This document shows positions 4,675 to 58,480 of a stretch of DNA of 64,000 nucleotides, piece after piece (positions within the stretch are counted from its first letter, which is position 1; each line of letters begins with the position of its first letter). Location: contig JAGOWQ010000005.1 of assembly GCA_018060185.1 (NCBI GenBank), positions 15,194 through 79,193 on the forward strand. Reading direction: 5' to 3'. Below the pieces are notes generated by a model. That model worked only from the letters and a program-made list of their open reading frames with translations, ran no database searches and had not been told where the DNA came from. A program made the translations under genes and the position numbers. This DNA comes from Leptotrichiaceae bacterium. Lineage in GTDB: Bacteria; Fusobacteriota; Fusobacteriia; Fusobacteriales; Leptotrichiaceae.

Positions 4675-4771
4675 TGGCGGGAATGTGTGGGAATCGAACC
4701 CACCTAAGAGGCTACTAACCCCTCACGCTAGTTTTGAAGACCAGAGAGAACACCAGAACTCATCCACTCCC
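4675..4771 (-). tRNA. selC: tRNA-Sec (anticodon UCA)
   Basis: The rc reads GGGAGTGGATGAGTTCTGGTGTTCTCTCTGGTCTTCAAAACTAGCGTGAGGGGTTAGTAGCCTCTTAGGTGGGTTCGATTCCCACACATTCCCGCCA. About 97 nt, anticodon loop CU-UCA-AA, long variable arm, GGTTCGATTCC T-loop and an encoded CCA. Adjacent to selD. It hides inside spurious plus-strand ORF 4604..4801. Confidence 0.85.
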
Positions 4772-43548: not shown

Positions 43549-44481
43549 TTATTCTTTTGCCATAGGATGTGTTTTCATATACACATCTTTTAAAAAGGCT
43601 TTACTTATATGAGTATACACCTGTGTAGTAGAAATACTACTATGTCCCAATAGTTCTTGTAAATACCTTATATCAACCCCATTATTCAGTAATTCTGTTG
43701 CAAAAGTATGCCTAAAAATATGAGGTGTAACTTCTTTTTGAAGTTCAGATTTTTTAGCATAATCTGAAATTAATCTTCTAAGTGATCTAGTCGTCAATTT
43801 TTCTCCTCGACTATTAGTAAATACAACATCTCTACTATAATTTTTATATGTTTTCATTTTTTCTTCTATATATTTTTTTAGCCATTTTTTTGTAGTTTCA
43901 CTAAAAAATGTTATTCTTTCTTTATTTCCTTTTCCAATAACTCTTATTTCTCTTTCTTCGGTATTTATCATATTTTCACTTAAATCTATTAGTTCTCCAG
44001 CACGAATTCCACTGGAATATAATAATTCTATTATAAGACGATCTCTTATCCCTGTTATTTTAGAAGTATCTATGCTTTCTCTTAGTTTATTAATATCTTC
44101 TTTATTTAAAACATTTGGAAGTTCTTTTTCAAATTTAGGCATAGTTATATATGTAACTTTATTTGTTTTAACTATATCTTTTTCTTGTAAATATTTAAAA
44201 AATGTTCTAAGTGCAGATATTTTCCTATTTATACTTCTTTTAGAAATACTCTTTGATTCTTTACTATTCTCAATATTGCTATTTGAATTTAAATACGCAA
44301 TAAATGATCTGAAAGTCATTGTTTCAATTTCTTCAAAAGTTTTTATTTCTTCATATTCATTTAAATAATCAATAAACTGAGTTATATCTTTTTTATATCC
44401 TTTTATTGTATTTAGACTTTTCCCTACTATTACTTCCTCATAATATAAAAACTTTTCTGCATATTCCATAAAATTATCCAT
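43549..44481 (-). CDS. tyrosine site-specific recombinase, XerC/XerD family
   Basis: 310 aa with the catalytic pattern R...HIFRHTFAT...LLGHSSISTTQVYTH. Lies directly after topA, in dprA-topA-xerC/codV-like synteny. Confidence 0.8.
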   Translation of the reverse strand: MDNFMEYAEKFLYYEEVIVGKSLNTIKGYKKDITQFIDYLNEYEEIKTFEEIETMTFRSFIAYLNSNSNIENSKESKSISKRSINRKISALRTFFKYLQEKDIVKTNKVTYITMPKFEKELPNVLNKEDINKLRESIDTSKITGIRDRLIIELLYSSGIRAGELIDLSENMINTEEREIRVIGKGNKERITFFSETTKKWLKKYIEEKMKTYKNYSRDVVFTNSRGEKLTTRSLRRLISDYAKKSELQKEVTPHIFRHTFATELLNNGVDIRYLQELLGHSSISTTQVYTHISKAFLKDVYMKTHPMAKE

Positions 44482-44492
44482 ATTTTACTCCA

Positions 44493-46880
44493 TTACTTAC
44501 TTTTGGATGTTGTTTTTTTTGAAATCTTTTTTGTTGATGTTTTTTTTGTAGTTGTTTTTTTAGTTGTAGATTTAGCTTTAACTTCTACTTTTTTAGATGT
44601 TTTTTTCTTAGTTGTTTTTTTACTATTCGACTTTTTATTTTTAGGTATGGCTTTTATATTTTTGCATTCAGGATAACCTGTACAAGCTAAAAACTTTCCA
44701 AATCTTCCCATTTTTATTTCAAAAGTACTACCACATTTTTCACAAACTCCTGCTTCTTCTTTAATCTTATTTTCTTCTTCAAGGATATTTAATAAATCAT
44801 CATTTATCTGAATAATACCGTCAACTTCATTTATAGCATTCTTTTTCAATTTTTGTTTAATTGGTATCGGTAAAGGCATTCTTTTTTCATCATTTTCATA
44901 ATCCTCACTTTCAAGATACTCACCAAATCTTCCTTTTTTCAATAAATATCTTTTTCCATTTTCTGTAAAATAATCAGTTAAAATACCTTTTTTTTCAGAT
45001 TTCAACTTTTCAACTTCACTATTGACAAAAATATGACCTTTTTCAATTTCTTCAGGATTAATTGCTACACCTTTTAAAGTAACTTTTTCTTCTTGGTCAG
45101 TTTCACTTATTAAATATTTCCCAAATCTTCCTGTTTTTAGAAGCATCGGTTTTCCCTTAGAGTCCATTACATCAGATATTATTTTTCTATTTTTTAATTT
45201 TTCTATTTCACTTTCATATTTTCCTAAATCTTCTTCAAGGGAATTATAAAAATTTCTAAGTAATTCTATCCACTCTACATTTCCATCTTCTATTTTATCT
45301 AATTCTTTTTCCATATTTGCAGTGAATTTTACATTCATTATATCTTGGAAATTTTTAAGTATTTCATTTTTAACTTCATATCCTAAAAATGTAGGATAAA
45401 ATCTTTTTTCTATTAATTCTGCATATTCTCTAGTTTTCAATGTTTCAACTATAGATGCGTAAGTAGATGGTCTTCCGATTCCTTCTGATTCAAGTTTTTT
45501 CACTAAAGTAGCTTCTGAGTATCTAGTAGGTGCTTTTGTTATTCCTTCTTCTATATTTAAAGCTTCAATAATATATTCGTCTCCCTCTTTTAATTGAGGA
45601 AAATCTCCTGTTTTAATTTCATCTTCTTCTTTAAATATTTTATAATATCCTTTAAAAATAACTTTATTTATAGTCCCTCTAAATTTATAGTCACCATTTC
45701 TAGCATTTATTTGCATTTGTTCATATTTCATAGCCGCAAATTGTGAAACTAAAAATCTATTCCATATTAATTTATAAAGCTTATATTGATCGTTTGTAAG
45801 ATAAGGTTGTATTTCGTCAGGTTCTAAATTGATATCAGACGGTCTAATCCCTTCATGCGCATCTTGTACATTACCACTTGCTTTTTTTTGTACATAATAA
45901 CCTACATACTCTTTTCCATATTTTGATACTATATAATCTTTTGCCATTTTTATAGCATCTTGAGATACTCTTGTAGAATCTGTTCTCATATATGTTATAA
46001 GACCTCTTTGCTCTCCTGCTATAGAAATCCCTTCATATAACTGTTGAGCTATTCTCATTGTTTTAGTAGCACCATATCCCAAATATGAAGAAGCAAGTTG
46101 CTGTAGTACACTTGTTTTAAAAACTAAAGGTGGCCTTTGGCTTTTCTTTTTAACTTCTACACTTTCTAGTGTAAGATATTTTCCTTTTAGATCTTTTTCT
46201 AATTTAGTAACTACTTTTTTATCAAATATTTTATCTATTTTTTCTTCTGATATTTCAACTAAATTAACTTTTATATCATTTTCCAAAATTGCATTTACTT
46301 CCCAATATATTTCTGGTTTAAATGATTTTATTTCATCTTCTAAATCACATATTAATTTTAATGCTACTGATTGAACTCTTCCTGCGCTAGCATTTTTATT
46401 TATTGTTTTCCATAGTAATGGACTTATTTTATAACCAACTATTCTATCGAGTAGTCTTCTAGCTTGCTGTGCATTTACTAGATTTTCATTTATATCTCTT
46501 GGATTTTTTATTGCATTATTTACTGCCGTTTTAGTTATTTCATTAAATTCTATTCTCTTAGTTTTTTTAGGCTGATTTATATAATTAGATATGTGCCAAG
46601 CTATTGCTTCCCCTTCTCTATCTTGGTCCGAGGCTAGATAGACCTCTGTAGCAGTTTTAGACTTTTCTTTTAATTTTTTTAATACTTCACTTTTTCCTTT
46701 TATTACTTGATATTTAGGTTCAAAATTATTTTCTATATCTATTCCAATTTTAGTCTTAGGTAAATCTATTACGTGACCATAAGAAGCTGTAACTTCGTAT
46801 CCTTTCCCCAATATTTTTTCTATTGTTTTTGCTTTTGATGGCGATTCTACTATTACAAGTTTTTTAGCCAATTTTTTCAC
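44493..46880 (-). CDS. topA: DNA topoisomerase I
   Basis: 795 aa with a TOPRIM N-terminus (LVIVESPSKAKT), active-site region YMRTDS and a C-terminal Zn ribbon (CEKCGS...CTGYPEC). It ends in a K/T/S-rich basic tail. Confidence 0.92.
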   Translation of the reverse strand: MKKLAKKLVIVESPSKAKTIEKILGKGYEVTASYGHVIDLPKTKIGIDIENNFEPKYQVIKGKSEVLKKLKEKSKTATEVYLASDQDREGEAIAWHISNYINQPKKTKRIEFNEITKTAVNNAIKNPRDINENLVNAQQARRLLDRIVGYKISPLLWKTINKNASAGRVQSVALKLICDLEDEIKSFKPEIYWEVNAILENDIKVNLVEISEEKIDKIFDKKVVTKLEKDLKGKYLTLESVEVKKKSQRPPLVFKTSVLQQLASSYLGYGATKTMRIAQQLYEGISIAGEQRGLITYMRTDSTRVSQDAIKMAKDYIVSKYGKEYVGYYVQKKASGNVQDAHEGIRPSDINLEPDEIQPYLTNDQYKLYKLIWNRFLVSQFAAMKYEQMQINARNGDYKFRGTINKVIFKGYYKIFKEEDEIKTGDFPQLKEGDEYIIEALNIEEGITKAPTRYSEATLVKKLESEGIGRPSTYASIVETLKTREYAELIEKRFYPTFLGYEVKNEILKNFQDIMNVKFTANMEKELDKIEDGNVEWIELLRNFYNSLEEDLGKYESEIEKLKNRKIISDVMDSKGKPMLLKTGRFGKYLISETDQEEKVTLKGVAINPEEIEKGHIFVNSEVEKLKSEKKGILTDYFTENGKRYLLKKGRFGEYLESEDYENDEKRMPLPIPIKQKLKKNAINEVDGIIQINDDLLNILEEENKIKEEAGVCEKCGSTFEIKMGRFGKFLACTGYPECKNIKAIPKNKKSNSKKTTKKKTSKKVEVKAKSTTKKTTTKKTSTKKISKKTTSKSK

Positions 46881-46898
46881 CTCACATTCTTAATATTT

Positions 46899-47987
46899 TT
46901 ATATTATTCTCATATACTTTGCTGTTCCTGTTTCTATTATAAGTCCTTTTATCTTTAAGCTCATTAATATAGAAAGTATTTCATTTAAAGAAAATTTACT
47001 AATACTTTCATTTGATTTTTCAAATAATTCTTCTATACTTATTTCTTCAGTCATAATATTAAATATTATTTTTTCATTTTCATTTAATTTTTTTACTTTT
47101 GTCTTTTCTATATTAATATCCCACAAAAATTCCTTTGCTATATCTTCTGCACATGTCACTAGTTTTGCCTTATTTTCTTTTATAAGATTATTACAACCTT
47201 CAAAAGAAGGATAATTTATAAAACCTGGAATAGCAAATATTTCTTTATTCATAGAAAAACCTAATTCTGCAGTAATAAGAGAACCACCTGATTTAAAACT
47301 TTCTCCTATTAATATCCCATCAGCAAGACCTGCTATTATCCTATTTCTTCTTGGAAAGGTCCACTTTGAAGGCTGTGTTCCTAAAGGATATTCACTAATT
47401 ACTGTACCAGTGTCATATATTTTTTCTAATAAATATTTATTTTCGTAAGGATAAACTATATCAAGACCTGTTCCAACTACAGCAATAGTATTTTCTGATT
47501 TCTCTACTGACATAGTTAAAGCTGCTGTATCTATTCCCTCTGCCAAACCACTTATTAAGGTTATATCGTAGTCTAATAATTCTTTTACAATTTTTTCACA
47601 TGCACTTTTACCAAATTTTGTCATTTTTCTAGTTCCCACTACTGCTATATTTTTCCTTAATTTTTGATTTTCATTATTAAAATTGGCTTTTTTATATATT
47701 TTTTTACCTTTGACATACAAAAACAAGGGATAATCTACGACTTCTTTCAATATTTTCGGATATTCCCTACCGTTTGCATTAATTATTCTTATTTCATTTT
47801 TTTCATATTTCTCTAAAATGTTACTTAAATTTATTTTATTTGCTTTTTCTAATTTAAATTTTAAATCATCATTAAAAAGTTTAAAATTTTCATTATTGTA
47901 TAAATCTTCATAATTTTTATAAAGTTTCATTAACTTTCTAATGTGAGATTCTTTCATTCCTATTTCTTTAAGTTTAATCCACCCCAT
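46899..47987 (-). CDS. dprA: DNA-processing protein DprA
   Basis: 362 aa with a Rossmann-like core (IAVVGTRKMTKFG...LISGLAEGIDTAA...GSLITA). Upstream of topA. Confidence 0.85.
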   Translation of the reverse strand: MGWIKLKEIGMKESHIRKLMKLYKNYEDLYNNENFKLFNDDLKFKLEKANKINLSNILEKYEKNEIRIINANGREYPKILKEVVDYPLFLYVKGKKIYKKANFNNENQKLRKNIAVVGTRKMTKFGKSACEKIVKELLDYDITLISGLAEGIDTAALTMSVEKSENTIAVVGTGLDIVYPYENKYLLEKIYDTGTVISEYPLGTQPSKWTFPRRNRIIAGLADGILIGESFKSGGSLITAELGFSMNKEIFAIPGFINYPSFEGCNNLIKENKAKLVTCAEDIAKEFLWDINIEKTKVKKLNENEKIIFNIMTEEISIEELFEKSNESISKFSLNEILSILMSLKIKGLIIETGTAKYMRII

Positions 47988-48014
47988 TAAACTCCCCCTA
48001 TTAATAACCTCAAA

Positions 48015-48830
48015 TTATTTATTTGCTATTATATCATTTAACTCACTAATTGCCCTGCTAACCTCTTTATTAGGATTCGAATTAGCATATGATCTTAGAT
48101 ACTCTAAGGCTTTGTTATATTCTCCTTTTGATTTATATGATATCCCTATTCCAAGCCTAGCCTCTGCCTGACCTGGTGATTTTGATAATATTCTATTATA
48201 GTAATCTATTGATTGATCGTAATTTCCAGTCAATCTTGAGGCGATAGCAACTACATATAAATTTCTAATATCTCCTGAAGTATCTTTTTTAGCTATATTC
48301 TCAGCTCTTTCATATAATCCATCTTTAAAATATAACTGACTTAATTGATATATTGTTGAAGCATTTCTTCTAGCTAATGCTGCTTTTTCATATTCGTTAT
48401 AACTTTTAAACTTAGAACCATCTGATACATCTTCTGTAACTCCCACAGGTAATGTCCCTGTATCTTCCCCAGGAGCAGGAGTAACTATATCTGTTGCTAA
48501 AGTTTCTGTTTGTGCTCCACCTAAAGCATTGGTTATTATATTACCTATTTCATTTTGTGCATTATTTACAGTATTAGCACTCTTTGTATTAGCTGCATTT
48601 TGAGTATTTTTCTTACTTGATATTTCATTAAGTAAATTTTGAATTGATTCTTTTTCCTTAATACTTACATTAGGGCTATTTAGCAATTTTTTTGCTTCTC
48701 TTTCGGCTCTATCATATTTACCTTGTTGAATAAGTGAATCAATATTTTGAATTTTACCAAGTAAATCTCCTCTTAAAATCACTGACATTGCAAAAACTAT
48801 CATTAGTCCTACTATTATTTTCTTTTTCAT
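48015..48830 (-). CDS. TPR-repeat secreted or membrane-anchored protein
   Basis: Signal/anchor MKKKIIVGLMIVFAMSVIL. C-terminal TPR-like repeats (YNRILSKSPGQAEARLGIGISYKSKGEYNKALEYL). The ATG at 48830 follows a GGAGGA SD. The track start is TTG. Confidence 0.7.
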   Translation of the reverse strand: MKKKIIVGLMIVFAMSVILRGDLLGKIQNIDSLIQQGKYDRAEREAKKLLNSPNVSIKEKESIQNLLNEISSKKNTQNAANTKSANTVNNAQNEIGNIITNALGGAQTETLATDIVTPAPGEDTGTLPVGVTEDVSDGSKFKSYNEYEKAALARRNASTIYQLSQLYFKDGLYERAENIAKKDTSGDIRNLYVVAIASRLTGNYDQSIDYYNRILSKSPGQAEARLGIGISYKSKGEYNKALEYLRSYANSNPNKEVSRAISELNDIIANK

Positions 48831-48872
48831 ATTTCCTCCAAATCTCAAAAATTAAGGTTTTTAATATTTTTA

Positions 48873-50261
48873 TTAAAACTCAAGATTTTTAGTGGTTCTA
48901 GGGAACGGTATTACATCTCTTATATTTGTCATTCCTGTAATATACATTAACATTCTATCAAATCCAAGTCCAAAACCTGAATGAGGTACACTACCGTATT
49001 TTCTTAAGTCTAAATACCACCAGTAGTCTTCTTGATTTAATCCCATTTGTTCTATTTTTTCAACTAATATTTCATAATTATCTTCTCTTTGACTACCACC
49101 AACTATTTCCCCTATTCCTGGAGCTAGTAAGTCGACTGCTCTAACTGTTTTATCATCACTGTTTAATTTCATATAAAATGCTTTTATATCTTTTGGATAA
49201 TCAGTTACAAACACAGGTTTTTTAAAATGTTTTTCAGCTAAATATCTTTCATGTTCTGTTTGTAAATCTATTCCCCACTCAACTTCATATTCAAAATCTT
49301 GATTTGCATTTTTAAGAATTTCTATTGCTTCAGTGTATGTAATTCTTGAAAAATTACTATTCATTAAAATATCCAATCTTGTGAATAATTCTTTATCTAC
49401 AAATTTATTGAAAAATTCCATTTCTTCTTTAGCATTTTCCATAACATAACTTACTATATATTTAATCATTTCTTCTATTACGTCCATATTTACATCTAAA
49501 TCAGCAAAAGCAATTTCTGGTTCCATCATCCAAAATTCTGCTGCATGTTTTGGTGTGTTTGATTTTTCAGCTCTAAACGTAGGACCAAATGTGTAAGTGT
49601 TTTTAAATGCTGTAGCAAATGTTTCTACATTTAATTGGCCACTTACTGTTAAGTTTGCTTCTTTCCCAAAAAAGTCTTGCTTAAAGTCAATGTCCCCTTC
49701 ACTATTTCTTGGAATATTATTTATATCTAATGTTGTAAGTTTAAACATTTCACCTGCACCTTCTGCATCACTTCCTGTTATTATTGGAGTTTGAACGTAC
49801 ACAAAATTTTTCTCTTGAAAAAATTTATGTATGGCATAAGATAACAACGATCTTACTCTAAACACTGCAAAAAATGCATTGGTTCTTGGTCTTAAATGCG
49901 CTATTGTTCTTAAAAATTCAAAAGTATGCCTTTTATTTTGTAGAGGATAATCAGAATCTGCTTTATCGTAAATTTCTATATTTGTTGCTAATATTTCATA
50001 TGATTGACCTTTACCTTGTGATTCTACAACTTTTCCAGTTACTTTTATAGAGGAAGAAATTGTTAATTTAGATATTTCTTCAAAATTATTTAAAGTTTCA
50101 TTAAATACTACTTGAATTCCTATGAAAAATGTTCCATCATTTAATTCTATAAATCCAAAGTTTTTTTGACTTCTAATTTTTTTTGCCCAACCATTTAAAG
50201 TTATTTCTTTTCCTAAATATTTTTCTGTATTTTTTTGAAGTTCTCTTAATTCTAATAACAT
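48873..50261 (-). CDS. asnS: asparagine--tRNA ligase
   Basis: 462 aa class IIb synthetase with an OB-fold N-terminus, motif 2 [21 protein letters not shown] and motif 3 [15 protein letters not shown]. Confidence 0.9.
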
Positions 50262-50488
50262 AATATTAATATAGTAAAATATATATTTTATATTTCACCA
50301 TAATCTCCTTTCTATTTCTACTAATTATTTTTAATCTATAAACAATAAAACATTATATCATATTATCGGACGAAATTTAAGTCTAAATATTATACTTCAT
50401 ATGAATATTTTTTTCTTTTGCTTTGACATTATTTATTATAAGTTATTTCTTTAAAATTTCTTTTAATTTTTTTATAAATTATAATATA

Positions 50489-50520
50489 GAAAAAAGACAG
50501 TCAAAATTCATAACTGCCTT
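50489..50520 (-). terminator. rho-independent terminator after rpmA
   Basis: The minus-strand transcript reads AAGGCAGT, loop, ACTGTC, then UUUUUU. It starts about 17 nt after the rpmA stop. Confidence 0.65.
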
Positions 50521-50537
50521 TTAATTATATAAAGTTA

Positions 50538-50831
50538 TTATGCTTCTTTTCTTTCTGCATAAATACTTACTTTCTTTTTACCTTTTCCAAAGTCTTCAAA
50601 TTTAACATATCCGTCAGTTAATGCGAATAATGTGTAATCTCTTCCTAATCCCATATTTGAACCTGCATGGAATTTTGTTCCTCTTTGTCTAACGATTATA
50701 TTTCCAGCTTTTACTAATTCACCATCATATTTTTTTACACCTAAATATTTAGGATTAGAATCTCTTCCGTTTCTAGTTGAACCTTGTCCCTTTTTTGAGG
50801 CAAATAACTGTAAATTTAACTTTAATATCAT
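50538..50831 (-). CDS. rpmA: 50S ribosomal protein L27 with a cleavable N-terminal extension
   Basis: 97 aa. [11 protein letters not shown]|[14 protein letters not shown]: the LQLFA-SKKG junction is the Prp cleavage-site type. Confidence 0.92.
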
Positions 50832-50835
50832 TTTT

Positions 50836-51177
50836 CTATACCTCCTTGATAATTAATTTTACATATTCTTTATAATCACTTGCAACTTCTTTTAAATATG
50901 AATACATAGACTCAGTTAAAATATGAGTCTTTTCATATTCTTCTTCTGTTAATTCAGATGATTTTAAATCGCAAATAATAATTCCTTCATCCATTTTATA
51001 TTTTATCTTGCTAAGTTCCAATATTTCTATTAAACCATTGAGAGTCATTTGAGCTGCTGCTGATACACTGGCACAAATTATATCTTCACCATATTCATAG
51101 GCATTTGCATGACCACTTATTTTAAAATATATAATTTTTTTATTCTTATTTTCTCTTTGAATTTCTACTTTTATCAT
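50836..51177 (-). CDS. prp: ribosomal-processing cysteine protease Prp
   Basis: 113 aa with GHAN...[11 protein letters not shown] (His/Cys dyad pattern). Lies between rplU and rpmA. Confidence 0.85.
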
Positions 51178-51198
51178 TAAAACTCAACTACTTCTAAA

Positions 51199-51507
51199 TT
51201 AAACATTAATTGCTTTAATTTCAATAGCAGTGTATTGTTGTCTGTGACCTTTTTTCCTATAATAAGTTTTCTTATTATATTTAAAGTTGATTTTCTTTTT
51301 ATCTTTACCATGTTCTTTCACTGTAGCAAGTACAGTTGCTGATTCTACTACTGGAGTTCCTACAGTTACTGCATTTCCTTCTCCAACTAATAAAACTTCT
51401 TTGATTTCTATATCTGAATTTAATTCAGCTGCTAATTTTTCAACTTTTATCACAGTTCCTACTTCAACTTTATATTGTTTTCCACCTGTTTTAATTACTG
51501 CAAACAT
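51199..51507 (-). CDS. rplU: 50S ribosomal protein L21
   Basis: 102 aa. MFAVIKTGGKQYKVEVG is the canonical L21 N-terminus. Confidence 0.92.
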   Translation of the reverse strand: MFAVIKTGGKQYKVEVGTVIKVEKLAAELNSDIEIKEVLLVGEGNAVTVGTPVVESATVLATVKEHGKDKKKINFKYNKKTYYRKKGHRQQYTAIEIKAINV

Positions 51508-51675
51508 TCTATGTCCACCTCCATAATATTAAAATCGCTAAATTTAGGTATTAGCTACCTTATTTATGCGTATACTTTAAAATAGTATCATATTTTTGTG
51601 ATTTTGTCAAATTTATATTTCATCATTAGAAAACTGAAATTCATTTAACTTTAAATTTAATCCTTCATTATGGTT

Positions 51676-52500
51676 TTATTTATTTAATGCATATTTATAA
51701 ATTGCTTTTGCAACTCCATTATTTATATTAGTATCTGTTTCATATTTTGCAGCTTTTCTTGCTAATTTAGTAGAATTTCCCATTGCTACACTTATCGAAG
51801 CGTACTCAAGCATTTCTACATCATTATTCCCATCCCCTATAGCCATAACTTCACTTTGATTTATTCCTAATCTTTCTGCTAATTTTTTCAATGCACTTCC
51901 TTTATGTGCTTCTAAAGGCATTGCTTCTAATATGTATGGCTGGCTACGAGGAAAATTATATTTTTTCCTTATGTCATTTGGCAAATTTTCCTCAAATTCA
52001 TCTAAATTTTCAATAGTTTCTAAAAACATCGATTTAAACATATTATATTTTCCACTTACTGCTTCTTCTATGGATATAGTTGTTATAGGAGTATATACTA
52101 AAGTAGAATCATAAGTCGTATACTTATTCGGTTTTTCTCCATTTTCTCCTACAAAAAAGAATTTATCTTCATTAAATAACGTAAAGTCTAATTTATATTT
52201 TCTTGATAATGAATACAGTTCTAAAATTTCTTCTTTTGATAATTTCCAATAATCTATTAATGAATAGTTTTTTGTTTCATGAGTGGAACAACCGTTATTT
52301 ACTATTATATACTTGTTAGCTTCGCCTAAAGCTAATTCGTTGTACAATGGTAAAGTTCCAAATAATGGTCTACCTGTACTTAATACAACACATATACCCT
52401 CACTTATGGCATTTTCTAATGCTTTTTTCTGTTCGTAATCTACATGTTTATCGTTATTTAAAAGTGTCCCATCCATGTCTATTGCAATTAATTTTACCAT
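51676..52500 (-). CDS. Cof-type HAD-IIB family hydrolase
   Basis: 274 aa with motif I IAIDMDGTLL, motif II STGR and motif III/IV GDGNNDVEM. Confidence 0.85.
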   Translation of the reverse strand: MVKLIAIDMDGTLLNNDKHVDYEQKKALENAISEGICVVLSTGRPLFGTLPLYNELALGEANKYIIVNNGCSTHETKNYSLIDYWKLSKEEILELYSLSRKYKLDFTLFNEDKFFFVGENGEKPNKYTTYDSTLVYTPITTISIEEAVSGKYNMFKSMFLETIENLDEFEENLPNDIRKKYNFPRSQPYILEAMPLEAHKGSALKKLAERLGINQSEVMAIGDGNNDVEMLEYASISVAMGNSTKLARKAAKYETDTNINNGVAKAIYKYALNK

Positions 52501-52527
52501 TTTTTCTCCTTCTTTAATTTAAGTAGT

Positions 52528-52563
52528 TTCTCATATTTTGATGAACATATTAAAATATGAGAA
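52528..52563 (-). terminator. 12-bp perfect hairpin between flavodoxin and the HAD gene (possible terminator or attenuator)
   Basis: TTCTCATATTTT, a 12-nt loop, then AAAATATGAGAA. There is no clear U-run after it on the minus-strand transcript. Confidence 0.4.
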
Positions 52564-52603
52564 TTTATTATATTATTAAATATAAATTTTGTATTTATCT
52601 GTA

Positions 52604-53116
52604 TTATTTTACTTCTTCTAACCATTTTTCTAATATCTCTTTAGAATTTTTAACTTCTGAACCTACTATTGATAATCCTTTTCTAACTTCTGAACTATCA
52701 CATATTTTTTTTATGTCGTTTACACTTCTACCTAATCCACTTCCTTCGTGTGTACAAATTGGTTTTATCACTTTTCCTGAAAAATCGTATTCTTCTAAAA
52801 ATGTAAATAAAACCATAGGCATTGTACCACAATAATTTGGATAAGCCAAATATATAGTATCATATTTTTCAGGCTCTTGAAGATATTCATCTAATTCAGG
52901 TCTTATATTATTTTGAAAATCATATTTTACTTCTTCTACACATTTATCATATTCATCAGAATATTCTACAACTTGTTTAATATGAAAAACATCTGCTCCT
53001 GTTATCTCTTTGAGTGTCTCTACTAACGTTTCTGTGTTTCCTTTTTCAACTGTTTTTATTTTACCTCCAAAATAATTTTCTCCTCTTCTAGAGTAATACG
53101 CTATTAATTCTGCCAT
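52604..53116 (-). CDS. flavodoxin family protein
   Basis: 170 aa counted from the ATG at 53116 (MAELIAYYSRRGENYF...), which is preceded by a GGAGGGA SD. The track start 53128 is GTG and lies in the SD. The pattern AYYSRRGEN...IYLAYPNYCGTMP...ICTHEGSGLG fits short flavodoxin-like FMN proteins. Confidence 0.75.
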   Translation of the reverse strand: MAELIAYYSRRGENYFGGKIKTVEKGNTETLVETLKEITGADVFHIKQVVEYSDEYDKCVEEVKYDFQNNIRPELDEYLQEPEKYDTIYLAYPNYCGTMPMVLFTFLEEYDFSGKVIKPICTHEGSGLGRSVNDIKKICDSSEVRKGLSIVGSEVKNSKEILEKWLEEVK

Positions 53117-53314
53117 AATTCCCTCCACTATATTAATTTTAATTTTATAATAAATTATAACATATTTTTTTAATTTATATATTTTTTTATATTAATATTT
53201 ATTATTTTAATTACAATATAGAACTATTAGAAAGCTTTATTTATAGATATTGTATACTAAAAAAAAAATTCTAAAAAAAATTGTGATTTTAATAAAAATA
53301 GTTTATAATTAAAA
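53069..53314. repeat. left copy of a ~245-bp direct repeat (flavodoxin codons 1-16 plus the whole divergent promoter region)
   Basis: Aligns by eye with 56345-56588 at a constant offset of 3276 nt. There are about 7 substitutions and one 2-nt indel. The 48 coding nt are identical. Confidence 0.85.
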
Positions 53315-54089
53315 AATTAAATTCACGATAATGAAAAATGTATTAATTATATATGTACAACTGTTTAGTTTGACTATCAATACTAGCTGTTCGTTAGGAA
53401 TAAGACACTTTTCTCGTTTTATAAACTACAATGATATTAAAGAATAAAATTATAACATTTTCATTTCAATATATGTTGAACTATAAGATACAAGATAAAA
53501 TTAAATAGAGGTGTTATAATATTCGTATTTCAAATATGTAAAATTTAAAAATACCAATTCATACACTATCAGTTCAACGTGAACAGATAATTTTACAGAT
53601 CCTACAAAAAAACTTATAATAAGAAAAATATAAATATTATAAAGATAGTTTATTAATTTTATGTGATTAAAAATCGTCTAAATAAAGAAAAAGTATGTTT
53701 CCTAAAAGTAACTCCAATAGTTAATTTTACTAATTAATATAATAAAAATAATCTAAAAAGCAATAATTTAAAAGGATATGTTTTAATAACTGGTACAGAA
53801 ATTTCAAAATATTAAGTAAAAAAATGAGATATATTTTTTACAATAACATTTGAAACTAAAAAGAGTTAATGTAATTATTTAAGATGTAAAAAATTAAGTT
53901 TTTATTATATTTGCGTTTAGGTCAATATCGAAAATAAATAAAAGAAAATTGAGCTAATACTCTAAGAATTAATATGATATTCTATTTTGGTGAAAATGAA
54001 GAAAAATAGTGTGTCTTTTGAATGAGGAAAACTCTGAAGATATTTCTAGTAAAGAGGATAAAAAATATAAAAATCAAAAATAATATTAT

Positions 54090-54134
54090 ATAAAAAACTG
54101 ACCATTAAGAAATATATAAAATCATATGATCAGT
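54090..54134. terminator. bidirectional terminator hairpin at the 3' end of the DUF262/DUF1524 gene
   Basis: ACTGACCAT (54097-54105) pairs with ATGATCAGT (54126-54134): 9 bp with one wobble or mismatch. An A-run lies on the left and ATTTTTAT on the right, so a U-tract follows the hairpin on either strand. Confidence 0.6.
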
Positions 54135-54141
54135 ATTTTTA

Positions 54142-56316
54142 TCAGTTCATCTCTAAAATAATAAAATCAGAATCTAAATCGTATTCTTTCATTATACTAG
54201 AAATTCTTTTAATTAGTGTCTCAGAACTTTCATTAGTATAATAAACATAATCATTAAAATTTGAATCTAATTCCGAAGCATATCTACCATTATGATCCTT
54301 AAAACATTTTAAATAATTTTCATGATTTTTTTTTGAATTACTCATCAAATCAGAATATTTTAAAATTAAAGGGGATTTTTTCCCAAAAATACGTTTTTGG
54401 TTATCAAATATATGCGTGATAGAATAATTATCTGAATTTTTAATCCAACTAATAAATTTTAAAAATACATCTTGCCATGTTCCTACAATGTATTCTTCTG
54501 AATCTATTAGCATCTTTTTTGGTTTATTTCCTGTTACAATATCCTTAAAATTTCCTTCTAAAGGAGAGAAAATATTGATTTGATTTGTATTTTGATTCCA
54601 ATTATTAATACTTTTTCTTTTCTCTGGTAATGGAAAAGTATCTAGGAAGCGTTCAATCATTTTTTTTTGATGTGCTAAAATAGAATCTTCATTCCAAATT
54701 TTTGTATTAATAACATCTAATCTATAATGTAATGAAGATGTAGCATATTTATCCTTTTTTTCTTTAAATGGTTTATTTCCTATTTCATTATTAAACTCAG
54801 TTAATATAATATTTCCAATATTATGTAAATATTTTTTATGAATACTGCTATAATTTTGACCTAGATCATTTTTCCATTGTTGAGTCAATTTTTGAGGCAT
54901 TATATGTTCAATTGTTATTTTTTTATCTCTAAAATCTACAGATACCTTTGCAACACTGGTTTCAATTTTTCCCAATATAAATTTAGAGTAACTCTTAAGT
55001 TCTTCGTAAAAATTCAAGTCCTTAAAATGATTATATAATTCAGTATCATTAGGCATCCTTAAATTATAATGTTGAGTACTTAGTAGTTCTAACATTGTTG
55101 TTCTATTATCCGCAATTTCATTAATTCTTTTAGACAGAGACGGAATATTTTTATTTTCTCCTTGTGATAATTTCAGTACTCTTCTCCTAATTAAATAAGT
55201 TCGAATAGTTTCCAATGTTTCAACTAATTGATTATCATTTATTATTTTTAAATGTTGGTGGTGCTCAAATAATCCAAGAACAAATGGTTTAAATGGCTCA
55301 GTTTTAATATCAGAAAATATATTTTTTAAAAGTTCACAAATTTTGTCGTTAACTAACGGGTCTGAAGAAATACTATCTGTTATATTATCTGAAATAATCC
55401 ATTTGTACCACGATACAAATCTAACAATATCATTAACAAAATCCATTTTATTTTTAAAGTTTTCTACAAAAGATTTGAAAATTTGATATAGTTCCTTTGT
55501 GTTGCTTTCACTAACTACTTTAAGATCTGTTCCAAGTTTATATTGCAAATAATCTCTAAAAAATTTTGAAGTATAATCTTCAAAATTTTCCTCAATTTTA
55601 GGATACCAAATTTTTTCGTAAACATCAGATTGTTCACTACTTAACATTTCTAGCAGTACATAATTTCTTACTAAATCTGATAAAGAAAGAGGCTTACCAA
55701 GAGAATTTAAAGTTTCAAATATAATTTGTGGATCTTCACCTTTAAAGGGACGTTCATCTAAAAATATTAGAGCAACATTAACTCTTGAAAGAGCAGTTAA
55801 ATAATTTTCAAAAGTAAATGAATGAGATTTAATTTTTTTTAAAAACAATTCATAGGCAGTTCCTATGATACTTGCAGTTAATACACCCTTTACTAATTTT
55901 TTATATGTCTCCCAATCTTTTGTTACTTGTTTTAATTTAATTTTATCTTCAAAAGAAGATGAATTATTCTTCAAATAGTATTCGTTAATATGAGATTTTT
56001 CTTTTTTGTCTTCTGTATAATCTCTTAATGCAATTAAAAAAATTAGAGTCGTGGTTAGACGTTGTTGACCATCAATTACTATGCTCCTAGTAGCAAATTT
56101 TTCTTTTTCCGTTTTAATTACAATCGTTCCAAAAAAATGTTCAAGTTTATCAGTTTGTTTAGAATCTAGTTCACTTTCAATTATTCTAACAATATCATCA
56201 AAATATCTATCAATTTCATTTTTTCCCCAAGCATATGCACGTTGAAATGGTGGAATAAAAAACGATGTATTATTCTGGGTTAATACGTCATTTATACTTT
56301 GATTATCTGTTTTCAT
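54142..56316 (-). CDS. DUF262 (ParB/Srx-like NTPase) plus DUF1524 (His-Me finger nuclease) protein, GmrSD/BrxU/SspE-like type IV restriction-type enzyme with an extra C-terminal domain
   Basis: 724 aa. N-terminus FFIPPFQRAYAWGKNEIDRYFDDI and IDGQQRLTT (DUF262 hallmarks). Around residues 470-520, ITIEHIMPQ...LHNIGNIILTEFNNEIGNKPFKEKK (DUF1524 H..N..N pattern). The last ~165 aa match nothing I recognise. A GGGGGGA SD precedes the ATG at 56314-56316. Confidence 0.8.
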   Translation of the reverse strand: MKTDNQSINDVLTQNNTSFFIPPFQRAYAWGKNEIDRYFDDIVRIIESELDSKQTDKLEHFFGTIVIKTEKEKFATRSIVIDGQQRLTTTLIFLIALRDYTEDKKEKSHINEYYLKNNSSSFEDKIKLKQVTKDWETYKKLVKGVLTASIIGTAYELFLKKIKSHSFTFENYLTALSRVNVALIFLDERPFKGEDPQIIFETLNSLGKPLSLSDLVRNYVLLEMLSSEQSDVYEKIWYPKIEENFEDYTSKFFRDYLQYKLGTDLKVVSESNTKELYQIFKSFVENFKNKMDFVNDIVRFVSWYKWIISDNITDSISSDPLVNDKICELLKNIFSDIKTEPFKPFVLGLFEHHQHLKIINDNQLVETLETIRTYLIRRRVLKLSQGENKNIPSLSKRINEIADNRTTMLELLSTQHYNLRMPNDTELYNHFKDLNFYEELKSYSKFILGKIETSVAKVSVDFRDKKITIEHIMPQKLTQQWKNDLGQNYSSIHKKYLHNIGNIILTEFNNEIGNKPFKEKKDKYATSSLHYRLDVINTKIWNEDSILAHQKKMIERFLDTFPLPEKRKSINNWNQNTNQINIFSPLEGNFKDIVTGNKPKKMLIDSEEYIVGTWQDVFLKFISWIKNSDNYSITHIFDNQKRIFGKKSPLILKYSDLMSNSKKNHENYLKCFKDHNGRYASELDSNFNDYVYYTNESSETLIKRISSIMKEYDLDSDFIILEMN

Positions 56317-56392
56317 TACAATATCCCCCCAATGTATCTTGATTAAAATAATTTTCTCCTCTTCTAGAGTAATACGCTATTAATTCTGCCAT
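56303..56392 (-). pseudogene. duplicated 5' fragment of the flavodoxin gene forming a 29-codon leader ORF
   Basis: ATG at 56390-56392 with the same SD as the flavodoxin gene. It reads MAELIAYYSRRGENYF (identical to flavodoxin residues 1-16), then NQDTLGGYCNENR*. By my reading the stop falls just inside the first codons of the DUF262 gene. Confidence 0.6.
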
Positions 56393-56588
56393 AATTCCCT
56401 CCATTATATTAATTTTAATTTTATAATAAATTATAACATATTTTTTTAATTTATATATTTTTTTATATTAATATTTATTATTTTAATTGAAATATAAAAC
56501 TATTATAAAGCTTTATTTATGGATATTGTATACTAAAAAAAAAATCAAAAAAAATTGTGATTTTAATAAAAATAGTTTATAATTAAAA
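56345..56588. repeat. right copy of the ~245-bp direct repeat
   Basis: See 53069-53314. It ends 5 nt after a TTGTGA-17-TATAAT promoter that faces the oxidoreductase gene. Confidence 0.85.
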
Positions 56589-56647: not shown

Positions 56648-57664
56648 ATGTTAACTATTGCCTACATTGGAAACGGTAAAAGTACCAATCGTTATCATTT
56701 ACCATTTTCAATAAAAGTAAAAGATATTAAAATCAAGACAATATATTCGCCATCTCCAAACTCTTGGGAACATATTGAAGGAATTATTTATACAAACAAA
56801 ATAGAAGATGTTTTAAATGATGAAGAAATTCAGTTAATTGTACTTGCTATTCCAGCAAGTTATCACTACGAAGTAGCCAAACAATGTTTAGAGTCAGGTA
56901 AACATACTTTAGTTGAAAAACCTTTTACTGAAACATCTACTCAAGCACGTGAACTTTTTGATATCGCTAAGAAAAAAGGTCTTTTTATTCAAGCTTATCA
57001 AAATAGAAGATTTGATTCTGACTTCTTAACTGTTCAAAAAGTTATTAATAGTGGTGTTTTAGGTGATATTTTAGAAGTAGAGATGCACTTCGATTATTTT
57101 CGCCCTGAAATACCAAAATCTGTTAAAAAATATTCTATTAATTCTAGTTATCTTTATGGGCATGCTTGTCATACTGTTGATCAAGTTATCTCATTTTTTG
57201 GTAAACCAGACCATATTCACTACGATGTTCGACAATTACTCGGTAAAAATCGAATGAATGATTATTTTGATCTTGATTTTTACTATGGTATTACAAAAGT
57301 TTCTATAAAATCTAGTTATTTTAGAATAAAAGAGCGTCCTAGCTTTATTATATATGGTAAAAATGGTATGTTTGTCAAAGTAAGTAAAGATCGTCAAGAA
57401 GAAGATTTAAAAAAATTCTATATGCCTAATAATATCGACTTTGGTTTGGATAAACCAGAACACTACGGTACCCTTACTTACATTGATAGTCAAGGAGTTT
57501 ATCATGAAGAATCAGTTATTACTGAAATAGGTGATTACAGCCACATTTATCAAGGTGTTCATGATACTATCATTAACGGGGCTGATAAAATTATAAAAGA
57601 TGAAGAAACAATTCTTCAAATTGAAATACTAGAAGAAGGTATACGACGTATGAATAAGAATTAA
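56648..57664 (+). CDS. Gfo/Idh/MocA family NAD(P)-dependent oxidoreductase
   Basis: 338 aa with an N-terminal Rossmann motif IAYIGNGKSTNRYHLP and an EKP motif (LVEKPFT). An AAAGGAG SD is present. Confidence 0.8.
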   Translation: MLTIAYIGNGKSTNRYHLPFSIKVKDIKIKTIYSPSPNSWEHIEGIIYTNKIEDVLNDEEIQLIVLAIPASYHYEVAKQCLESGKHTLVEKPFTETSTQARELFDIAKKKGLFIQAYQNRRFDSDFLTVQKVINSGVLGDILEVEMHFDYFRPEIPKSVKKYSINSSYLYGHACHTVDQVISFFGKPDHIHYDVRQLLGKNRMNDYFDLDFYYGITKVSIKSSYFRIKERPSFIIYGKNGMFVKVSKDRQEEDLKKFYMPNNIDFGLDKPEHYGTLTYIDSQGVYHEESVITEIGDYSHIYQGVHDTIINGADKIIKDEETILQIEILEEGIRRMNKN

Positions 57665-57748
57665 ATATACCTTTTTAGTAGTAAAATATCTGTTCGACGT
57701 AATAAATTAAACCACGTATCTACATTAAATTTTTCTTATATTAAAAAA

Positions 57749-57789
57749 CCTTTGGGTAACATGCTGATTTAACATATGTTATCCAAAGG
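57749..57789. terminator. bidirectional rho-independent terminator between convergent genes
   Basis: 14-bp perfect stem CCTTTGGGTAACAT / ATGTTATCCAAAGG with a 13-nt loop. AAAAAA lies before it and TTTAT after it. Confidence 0.8.
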
Positions 57790-57835
57790 TTTATATGAAT
57801 TTTTTTCTCTAGTATAAACTACTATAATCAGTATT

Positions 57836-58480
57836 TTATGCTTCTTTTTTAGCCATAATATCTTTTACTTTCATAAGTCTTATAATGTTTCCTCTTTCAT
57901 TTTCGTCTAGTTTCATTTGAATATATTTTATTGTTTCTTGATATTGGGGTATAGTCATATATTCCAAAGCATTAACACGACGTCTTGTTTTTTCTACTTC
58001 ATCTGCCATTAACTGACATGCTTTTTCAATTTCAGATAGTTCCAATAACTCATCCATTATTTCATTCAATCCTTCAATAGCATCATCTAAATCTGCTGAT
58101 GTTTGAGCGTATCCATAAGGATATATTGAACCAGCTAAATTTTCATTATCTTTTATAAAAGTCATTTTAGGCACATTAACGCTCATTATATTTTTCATTT
58201 TTATTTTTAAACTAATTTTTTCTTTTGGATAAAGAATAGCGTTTTCAAGCATTTCATCTGACATTACTCCTCTTGAAAGTAAAAAATCTTTAAAAGAATT
58301 TTGAAGTTTTTCTTCCACTTTTTCTCTTAATTTTTTATTTTCTTTTATCATCTCAATGAACTGTCTCATTAACTCATCCTGTTTATCCTTTAATAATTTA
58401 TGACCTCTAACAGCTGTTTTTAAACGTGTTTTTAATCTAGTTAACTCCATTCTAGTTGGATTTACATTTAACCTAGCCAT
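57836..58480 (-). CDS. ntpD: V-type ATP synthase subunit D
   Basis: 214 aa. [37 protein letters not shown] is the canonical V/A-type D N-terminus. Confidence 0.9.

Follow-up and report, generated by a model that had tools for sequence, protein, structure and literature searches.

Restriction genes in some bacteria are bounded by long direct repeats of their target, a layout termed 'insertion with long target duplication' whose first description came from the restriction-modification genes of Helicobacter pylori (Nobusato et al. 2000, reference 37 in PMC2853133). A survey of the class was published by Furuta, Abe and Kobayashi (2010, Nucleic Acids Res 38:2428; PMC2853133), and the passages of that survey used here describe units that carry no mobility genes and are flanked by direct target repeats of 30 to ~420 bp. 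According to the same passages, the cases span Types I-IV, most are found in naturally competent species, and the repeats often cover a translation start or stop in such a way that the target gene stays intact; gene fusions at the junctions also occur. The intraspecific screen required pairs of restriction and modification genes, and a solo Type IV mcrA gene was nonetheless reported. The mechanism is stated there to be unknown, double-strand breakage is suggested to play a part, and evidence for release or re-infection is noted to be lacking. The present analysis concerns a 3030-bp insert that carries a solo Type IV restriction gene of the GmrSD family and is bracketed by direct repeats of about 245 bp, within a 64,000-nt stretch (the window) of contig JAGOWQ010000005.1 of an uncultured sewage bacterium of the Leptotrichiaceae (assembly GCA_018060185.1). 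The structure is best explained, with a probability of roughly 0.6, as a one-off insertion with long target duplication in the promoter and 5' region of a flavodoxin gene, which is now fixed and is not an active shuttle.

The structure is a member of this known class, as far as the passages of PMC2853133 define it. The unit contains a restriction gene and measures 3030 bp (the limit being <20 kb), its flanking direct repeats of 244 and 246 bp are 96% identical (repeats >30 bp being asked for), and no mobility gene lies in or beside it, the neighbours being flavodoxin, HAD, oxidoreductase, and V-type ATPase (V-ATPase) genes. As is often the case in the class, the repeat spans a start codon, here that of the flavodoxin, and leaves the target intact. 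An earlier reading made from the letters of the window alone (the sequence-only reading) had been unable to assign the locus to any named class of element; the layout fits the one surveyed. The locus departs from the cases in those passages in its host (Fusobacteriota, Leptotrichiaceae) and enzyme family (GmrSD), and in having no clean empty-site genome, the target being a species-specific composite. The duplicated piece here also donates a predicted promoter and leader, a feature of which the passages make no mention.

Foreign or self DNA that a cell takes up can be integrated through a pair of joints, of which one is homologous and the other illegitimate, or across sister chromatids, and duplications then form without an element-encoded enzyme. 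Such events have been described for homology-facilitated illegitimate recombination (HFIR) and for transformation (the relevant parts of PMC3240628 and PMC3784515), and the present locus may have arisen in a similar way. In pneumococcus, transformation-made duplications across sister chromatids were documented experimentally (PMC3784515). The merodiploids of Johnston et al. (2013; PMC3784515) extend over 100-900 kb and arise via pre-existing repeats, whereas here 245 bp are duplicated around 3 kb of foreign DNA.

The duplicated segment and the insert

A self-comparison of the window placed the direct repeats at 53069-53314 (left copy, S_L; 246 bp) and 56345-56588 (right copy, S_R; 244 bp), in the same orientation and with an offset of 3276/3274 nt. 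Over an alignment of 246 nt the copies were 96.3% identical (BLAST E 1.8e-114 within the window), the differences being 7 mismatches and a single 2-nt gap, in agreement with the earlier estimate of about 7 substitutions and a 2-nt indel, and the longest run identical between them was ~85 nt. No third copy was present in the 64-kb window, over which copy number was checked. Either copy contains flavodoxin codons 1-16 (MAELIAYYSRRGENYF), a GGAGGG Shine-Dalgarno (SD) sequence, the extended -10 motif TGTTATAAT on the minus strand (53154-53162 and 56430-56438), and the motif TTGTGA-17-TATAAT on the plus strand (53281-53309 and 56555-56583). The motifs that the sequence-only reading had proposed as divergent promoters are thus present in both copies, but a promoter motif scan of this DNA (~75-80% A+T) returned 39 sites against 45.6 expected in shuffles, and the repeat promoters count as consensus matches only. 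The left copy is the same in almost all strains, and only positions 53069-53176 of it are homologous to sister species; the right copy has the same features and is where strain-level divergence starts.

Both junctions are sharp, with no microhomology seen at either one by eye on the repeat alignment, and the repeat scan found neither terminal inverted repeats at the ends of the insert nor an inverted-repeat or core-site structure at the ends of the repeats. A DNA transposon was rejected on the grounds that there are no terminal inverted repeats, no transposase, and a duplication of 245 bp, which, as had been pointed out from the sequence, is too long for the target-site duplication of a transposase.

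The insert (53315-56344, 3030 bp) consists of 827 bp of gene-less DNA, one gene, and a 28-nt leader. Apart from that gene it holds no open reading frame (ORF) of more than 38 aa, hence no mobility gene, transposase, or integrase was found in it. The gene (54142-56316, minus strand) is intact in the window and encodes a solo GmrSD-family (DUF262 + DUF1524) Type IV restriction endonuclease of 724 aa, which upholds the earlier identification of a GmrSD-like nuclease unaccompanied by a mobility gene. Both Pfam domains scored above the cut-off (GmrSD_N, PF03235, E 5e-32; GmrSD_C, PF07510, E 3e-25), and the protein matched the PADLOC models Orf5, HEC-06, SspE, and mREase_IV, all of them for DUF262/DUF1524 defence nucleases. 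The stretches 'VIDGQQRLTT' (DGQQR motif of the N-terminal DUF262 ParB/NTPase-like domain) and 'TIEHIMPQ ... HNIGNIILT ... NKPF' (EHI...NIGN, C-terminal DUF1524 His-Me finger nuclease domain) align to PDB 9jfl, a solved DUF262 protein. The two domains, with their DGQQR NTPase and His-Me finger motifs, are shared with Type IV enzymes of the GmrSD/BrxU/SspE type (PMC4619093, PMC4437046, PMC8565348), unlike which the present protein has an extra C-terminal extension of ~165 residues.

The closest relative of the protein, at 66% identity, is encoded by a solo chromosomal gene of Lactovum odontotermitis in an unrelated context; the DNA similarity (70%) starts exactly at the GmrSD ATG and does not reach the flanks. 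Other relatives are 55-59% identical. The plasmid DNA search gave no match and the plasmid protein search at most 28% identity, and a single 26% match was obtained among IMG/VR viral contigs, so that no close plasmid, phage, or viral copy was found. The compositional comparison with the flanks that the sequence-only reading had suggested did not set the cassette apart. The G+C content at third codon positions (GC3) is 0.14 for GmrSD and 0.16 for the neighbouring oxidoreductase vs 0.11-0.17 for host genes, codon usage is likewise indistinguishable, and composition is therefore uninformative on the recency of the insertions.

Upstream of the gene, the insert-borne leader (56317-56344, minus strand, 28 nt) has a G-rich stretch resembling an SD (GGGGGGA), placed 7 nt ahead of the GmrSD ATG, and no promoter of its own, and the nearest promoter-like element in the GmrSD orientation is the duplicated flavodoxin extended -10 of the right copy. 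Translation across the junction yields a truncated flavodoxin' leader ORF of 29 codons (56303-56392, minus strand), called as a gene in most contigs, in which MAELIAYYSRRGENYF is followed by 13 new residues (MAELIAYYSRRGENYFNQDTLGGYCNENR in full) and whose stop codon lies 14 nt inside GmrSD. From the sequence, this overlap of leader stop and GmrSD start suggests translational coupling besides the gene's own G-rich SD.

Downstream of GmrSD, the orphan non-coding part of the insert (53315-54141, 827 bp) is 81-83% A+T and purine-rich on the plus strand, a bias opposite to that of the surrounding minus-strand genes. No similarity to the sister loci, the Lactovum flank, the rest of the window, or plasmids was detected. 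A decayed oxidoreductase or flavodoxin copy was rejected, only low-complexity chance matches being obtained, and Rfam searches of the region (gathering and permissive) gave nothing credible, a match to CRISPR-DR41 (E 0.88) being dismissed. This part of the insert, which lies directly 3' of the plus-strand promoter-like motif of the left copy, could be a dead plus-strand gene or the template of an antisense transcript.

The ancestral site and its neighbours

The flavodoxin gene (52604-53116, minus strand, ATG at 53116) is intact and encodes 170 aa (Pfam Flavodoxin_4, E 6e-21), its first 16 codons lying in the left copy. Its orthologues in sister species are 75-83% identical and adjoin ATP-synt_D and HAD genes; one relative at 72% is named Leptotrichia sp., and these relatives assign the organism to Leptotrichiaceae. 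In four sister lineages the V-ATPase genes (... A, B, D), flavodoxin, and HAD follow one another on a single strand with no oxidoreductase and no GmrSD, and subunit D and flavodoxin are separated by 85-171 bp or by a small DUF5105 gene. The gene for V-type ATPase subunit D, the last of its operon (57836-58480, minus strand), stands directly before flavodoxin in sister species and marks the right edge of the ancestral site in the window.

Within this site, the window carries a Gfo/Idh/MocA oxidoreductase gene (56648-57664, plus strand; Pfam) that is absent from sister species. Its matches are 98% identical within the species, followed by one fragment at 81%, Streptococcus at 76-77%, and Enterococcus at ~70% (69-77% for the two genera together). 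No other relative was found in the family, and all four sister lineages of Leptotrichiaceae lack the gene at this site. The acquired stretch includes ~59 nt upstream and 171 nt downstream of the gene. By these sequence comparisons, the oxidoreductase is an earlier foreign insertion between ATP-synt_D and flavodoxin, evidently acquired horizontally. The divergent flavodoxin/oxidoreductase pair, which the sequence-only reading had taken as the simple form of the locus before the insert, is not ancestral, the four sister lineages being without the oxidoreductase.

The part of the repeat that is homologous to sister species is the flavodoxin-proximal ~108 nt (16 codons plus ~60 nt, up to the extended -10 element), and both copies in the window align to the single copy of this part in each of the four lineages. 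The distal ~137 nt have no homologue and presumably came with the oxidoreductase. Since only the proximal ~108 nt are shared, the repeat as a whole is a composite confined to this species, and its composite nature gives the order of events, with the oxidoreductase first and the GmrSD insertion with duplication second. The lipoprotein-like DUF5105 gene is present in two sister lineages (L108, 7347-7907; L112, 7421-7981) and missing in two others, which makes the gap between ATP-synt_D and flavodoxin a generally variable spot in Leptotrichiaceae. A remnant of this gene in the 51.6-58.5 kb region was rejected, as none was found with tblastn.

Conspecific contigs and the divergence boundary

Four different genes of the locus served as queries for retrieving conspecific contigs through exact protein matches; samples that carry the species include ERZ22665968, ERZ28615430, and ERZ22666108. 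About 18 distinct contigs, from Danish and other sewage and wastewater metagenomes and two NCBI metagenome-assembled genomes (MAGs; GCA_017985095.1 and GCA_017986595.1), share the layout, and the gene order in all of them is HAD, flavodoxin, repeat, GmrSD, 29-codon ORF, repeat, oxidoreductase, V-ATPase. Several are MEGAHIT k127/k141 contigs, for which k exceeds the ~85-nt longest shared run, so that the two copies are resolvable, and the broken contigs end inside the repeat, as a true repeat predicts. The layout is not an assembly artefact.

An empty site, that is, the 245-bp segment in single copy without the insert, was found in none of the ~18 conspecific contigs, all of which are occupied, and no copy of the cassette was found at a second locus. 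A metagenome scan with the exact right-junction pattern gave 0 matches, and the best oxidoreductase protein in it was 77% identical, from which it follows that the species is absent from that metagenome collection; the species was also not among the GTDB representatives scanned. As grounds against its own proposal of a mobile cassette, the sequence-only reading had named an assembly artefact and, alternatively, an arrangement common to all relatives with neither empty sites nor cassette copies elsewhere. The former is not borne out by the ~18 independent contigs, and the latter is what was found at the species level. One further contig, L118 (1398 bp, with a 96%-identical flavodoxin), is uninformative as to an empty site, as only 44 nt precede the flavodoxin ATG in it. 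At its 5' end it matches the left copy, and ~95 nt at the start of the flavodoxin coding sequence, without a difference, its 3' part diverges, and its flavodoxin-HAD spacing of 226 bp matches that of the sister lineage L104 (vs 103 bp in the window). Recombination between lineages may account for it, or else the contig may be chimeric.

Most contigs scarcely differ from the window, and the sole polymorphism within the insert is a frameshift in GmrSD. In a sub-lineage comprising L002, L003, L095, and L100, a 1-nt deletion at ~55914 (CCCAATC to CCCATC) splits the gene into 140 + 568 aa, so that decay of the defence gene has already set in among some members of the species. The frameshift is linked to a single-nucleotide polymorphism at 52740.

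The informative divergent haplotypes are L006, L116/L117, and L012, with a divergence of 0.7-2% rightwards. Scaffold_134 of ERZ28615430 is among the contigs of these haplotypes. L006 is 100% identical to the window over 44142-56403, a span of 12.3 kb that takes in the insert in full along with the left copy and left flank. The 7.6 kb beyond it contain 61 differences (58 mismatches, 3 gaps), beginning at 56404, inside the right copy; its left flank shows 0 differences in 8.9 kb and its right flank 54 in 7.4 kb (0.73%). L012 agrees with the window through 56451 and departs from it beginning at 56452, and, because it is a k141 MEGAHIT contig, the linkage of insert and variants is carried by real 141-mers. 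The breakpoints fall in the intervals 56345-56404 (L006, L116, L117) and 56404-56452 (L012). Between lineages, the right copy differs at 7/245 positions, compared with 0 differences in the 3030-bp insert (its 827 non-coding bp, just as AT-rich, included), the left copy, and the 8.9-kb left flank, and in-place divergence of the copies since a single duplication was therefore rejected as the whole story. The pattern indicates that the insert and left flank recently moved between lineages, or that the right flank was replaced, by homologous recombination, the direction being one that we infer. A crossover at the edge of heterology is expected if one partner lacks the insert, and its position thus provides indirect evidence for insert-less genomes, now or formerly. 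The contigs L116 and L117, of different sample accessions, both start at the window equivalent of 54312, in the 3' part of GmrSD; this shared end could be a branch in the assembly graph, i.e., the divergent lineage differs downstream.

Mosaic repeat alleles were observed in the left copies of L013, which has right-copy alleles at 53221-53272, and L008, which has one at 53128, and other-copy alleles are also found at the contig ends of L010, L011, L014, and L102. These alleles may represent gene conversion between the copies or mixing of the copies by the assembler at low coverage.

Among other features of the window, a hairpin flanked by A- and T-runs (57746-57798; dG -25.2 kcal/mol, z -6.3) is located between the convergent oxidoreductase and ATP-synt_D genes and is likely a bidirectional terminator; five variants of the divergent haplotypes cluster near it (57727-57797). 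A tRNA-Sec gene at 4675-4771 on the minus strand (ARAGORN; Rfam tRNA-Sec, 66 bits) points to the use of selenoproteins by the organism.

Routes to the present structure

The ancestral order was that of the sister lineages, from V-ATPase subunit D through flavodoxin to HAD, into which a module with the Lactobacillales-type oxidoreductase entered ~60 nt upstream of the flavodoxin ATG and thereby produced a divergent intergenic region. In the simplest course of events proposed, linear foreign DNA of 3030 bp would then have been joined by two illegitimate joints lying 245 bp apart on the target, possibly in the setting of sister chromatids, a replication fork, break repair, or transformation, and the 245 bp between the two joints would for that reason be present on both sides of the insert. 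Finally, as the pattern in the divergent haplotypes shows, either the insert spread together with the left flank or the right flank was replaced, with the crossover inside the right copy.

As judged from the anatomy of the locus, the left copy would keep the flavodoxin supplied with its own promoter, SD, and first 16 codons, and it is because the gene is left intact in this way that an insertion at its start would be tolerable. The right copy would lend the promoter-less GmrSD both the extended -10 promoter of the flavodoxin and a leader of 29 translated codons, and would still supply the upstream region of the oxidoreductase. The plus-strand promoter-like motif of the left copy points into the 827-bp tail and, if active, would run antisense to GmrSD. 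By analogy with its family, the GmrSD enzyme would cut modified phage DNA.

Several points weigh against a one-off insertion with target duplication. There is no clean genome with the 245-bp target in single copy, and target duplication is directly shown for 108 of the 245 nt only. The source of the insert was not found in protein, plasmid, or viral searches, the best relative being 66% identical, and the breakpoints of the divergent haplotypes may descend from a single event. The use of the promoter and translation of the leader are predictions, and the promoter scan was not above chance. The mechanism of the class is unsettled in the literature, and in the present case it is not separable from a two-step or circle-mediated route.

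The alternative that survives best, though it too is unlikely, is a two-step route in which the cassette broke the flavodoxin after codon 16 and wild-type DNA later restored the flavodoxin and its upstream region by HFIR. The homologous joint would lie in HAD/flavodoxin and the illegitimate one at 53314|53315, and part of a larger insert may have been deleted in the process. This route yields exactly the observed structure and gives selection a role, the flavodoxin being restored and the defence gene kept. It would also make sense of the 827 bp without genes, as what is left of a larger insert, but a gene remnant is undetectable in 53315-54141. The left copy and left flank behave as one recently spread haplotype, in keeping with this route, and both HFIR (in the part of PMC3240628 drawn on) and transformation-made duplications (PMC3784515) are documented in competent bacteria. 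On the other side, the route takes one event more than a single staggered insertion, and no genome with the disrupted intermediate was found.

Somewhat less probable still is the Campbell-type integration proposed in the sequence-only reading, in which a ~3.3-kb circle carrying the cassette and one 245-bp copy entered by a single crossover and could excise and re-enter, as a recombinase-free defence shuttle. An insert bracketed by direct repeats of a shared segment is exactly the product topology of a single crossover and is reversible in principle via the repeats. The mosaic alleles of L013 and L008 hint at exchange between the copies, although such alleles also occur at contig ends and may come from mixing of copies by the assembler, and, as the position of the divergence boundary within the right copy makes plain, the repeat has served as a crossover site. 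The origin of the structure, however, is beyond what Campbell integration can explain. The repeat composite occurs only in this species, so that a circle bearing it derives from an already occupied genome, which leaves the origin unexplained and makes the circle only secondary. No circle, replicon, second locus, or plasmid, phage, or viral copy was found, and the ~18 conspecific contigs are without an empty site. In addition, Campbell integration would leave both flanks recipient-type, whereas in the only visible transfer the left flank is donor-type over at least 8.9 kb, that of L006 being equal to the window over this length with 54 differences in 7.4 kb on the right; this pattern fits homologous recombination of a long linear fragment and not the single-crossover entry of a 3.3-kb circle.

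A related suggestion, which we regard as improbable, is that the repeats are the working part of the structure even now, such that the cassette leaves by looping out, in the form of a ~3.3-kb circle, or travels as a copy along with its flank, and gets into cassette-less strains again via the 245-bp promoter segment. The divergence boundary in the right copy and the mosaic alleles would then be traces of traffic, and the captured promoter and leader would have the gene expressed on arrival. The cassette is fixed at one site in one species with no sign of movement, which speaks against a defence shuttle as earlier envisaged.

It is very improbable that the repeats are att sites at which a recombinase supplied in trans, such as host Xer or a phage integrase, carried out site-specific integration. 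Integrative elements do produce direct repeats through which the target gene regains its end, and at tRNA targets repeats of >30 bp occur according to the passages of PMC2853133; a tyrosine-recombinase gene is located ~10 kb to the left, after topA. In every strain, however, that gene belongs to a housekeeping dprA-topA-xerC context. The insert and its immediate surroundings are without an integrase, 245 bp far exceeds known identity segments, and the ends of the repeats gave no sign of inverted repeats or a core site. A collapsed or mis-joined repeat, to which contigs that end in the repeat or carry other-copy alleles at their ends and one scaffold with an N-gap in the right copy might point, has a negligible chance of being the explanation, given the full structure in ~18 contigs from different samples and assemblers and in two MAGs, and copies that differ every <=85 nt and are resolved at k127/k141.

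No new kind of mobile element is revealed by the locus. A one-off insertion with long target duplication in this species provides a clean, population-sampled example for a class of restriction-gene insertions that was described in 2000-2010 and whose mechanism was then unexplained, as the passages of PMC2853133 have it, and adds to it a phylum (Fusobacteriota) and an enzyme family (GmrSD). From the anatomy, the duplicated target can act as a ready-made promoter and translated leader for an incoming defence gene. Ordinary homologous recombination would then carry the insert from lineage to lineage inside the species, the crossover being fixed at the edge of heterology, and both of these points were beyond the reach of earlier pairwise genome comparisons.

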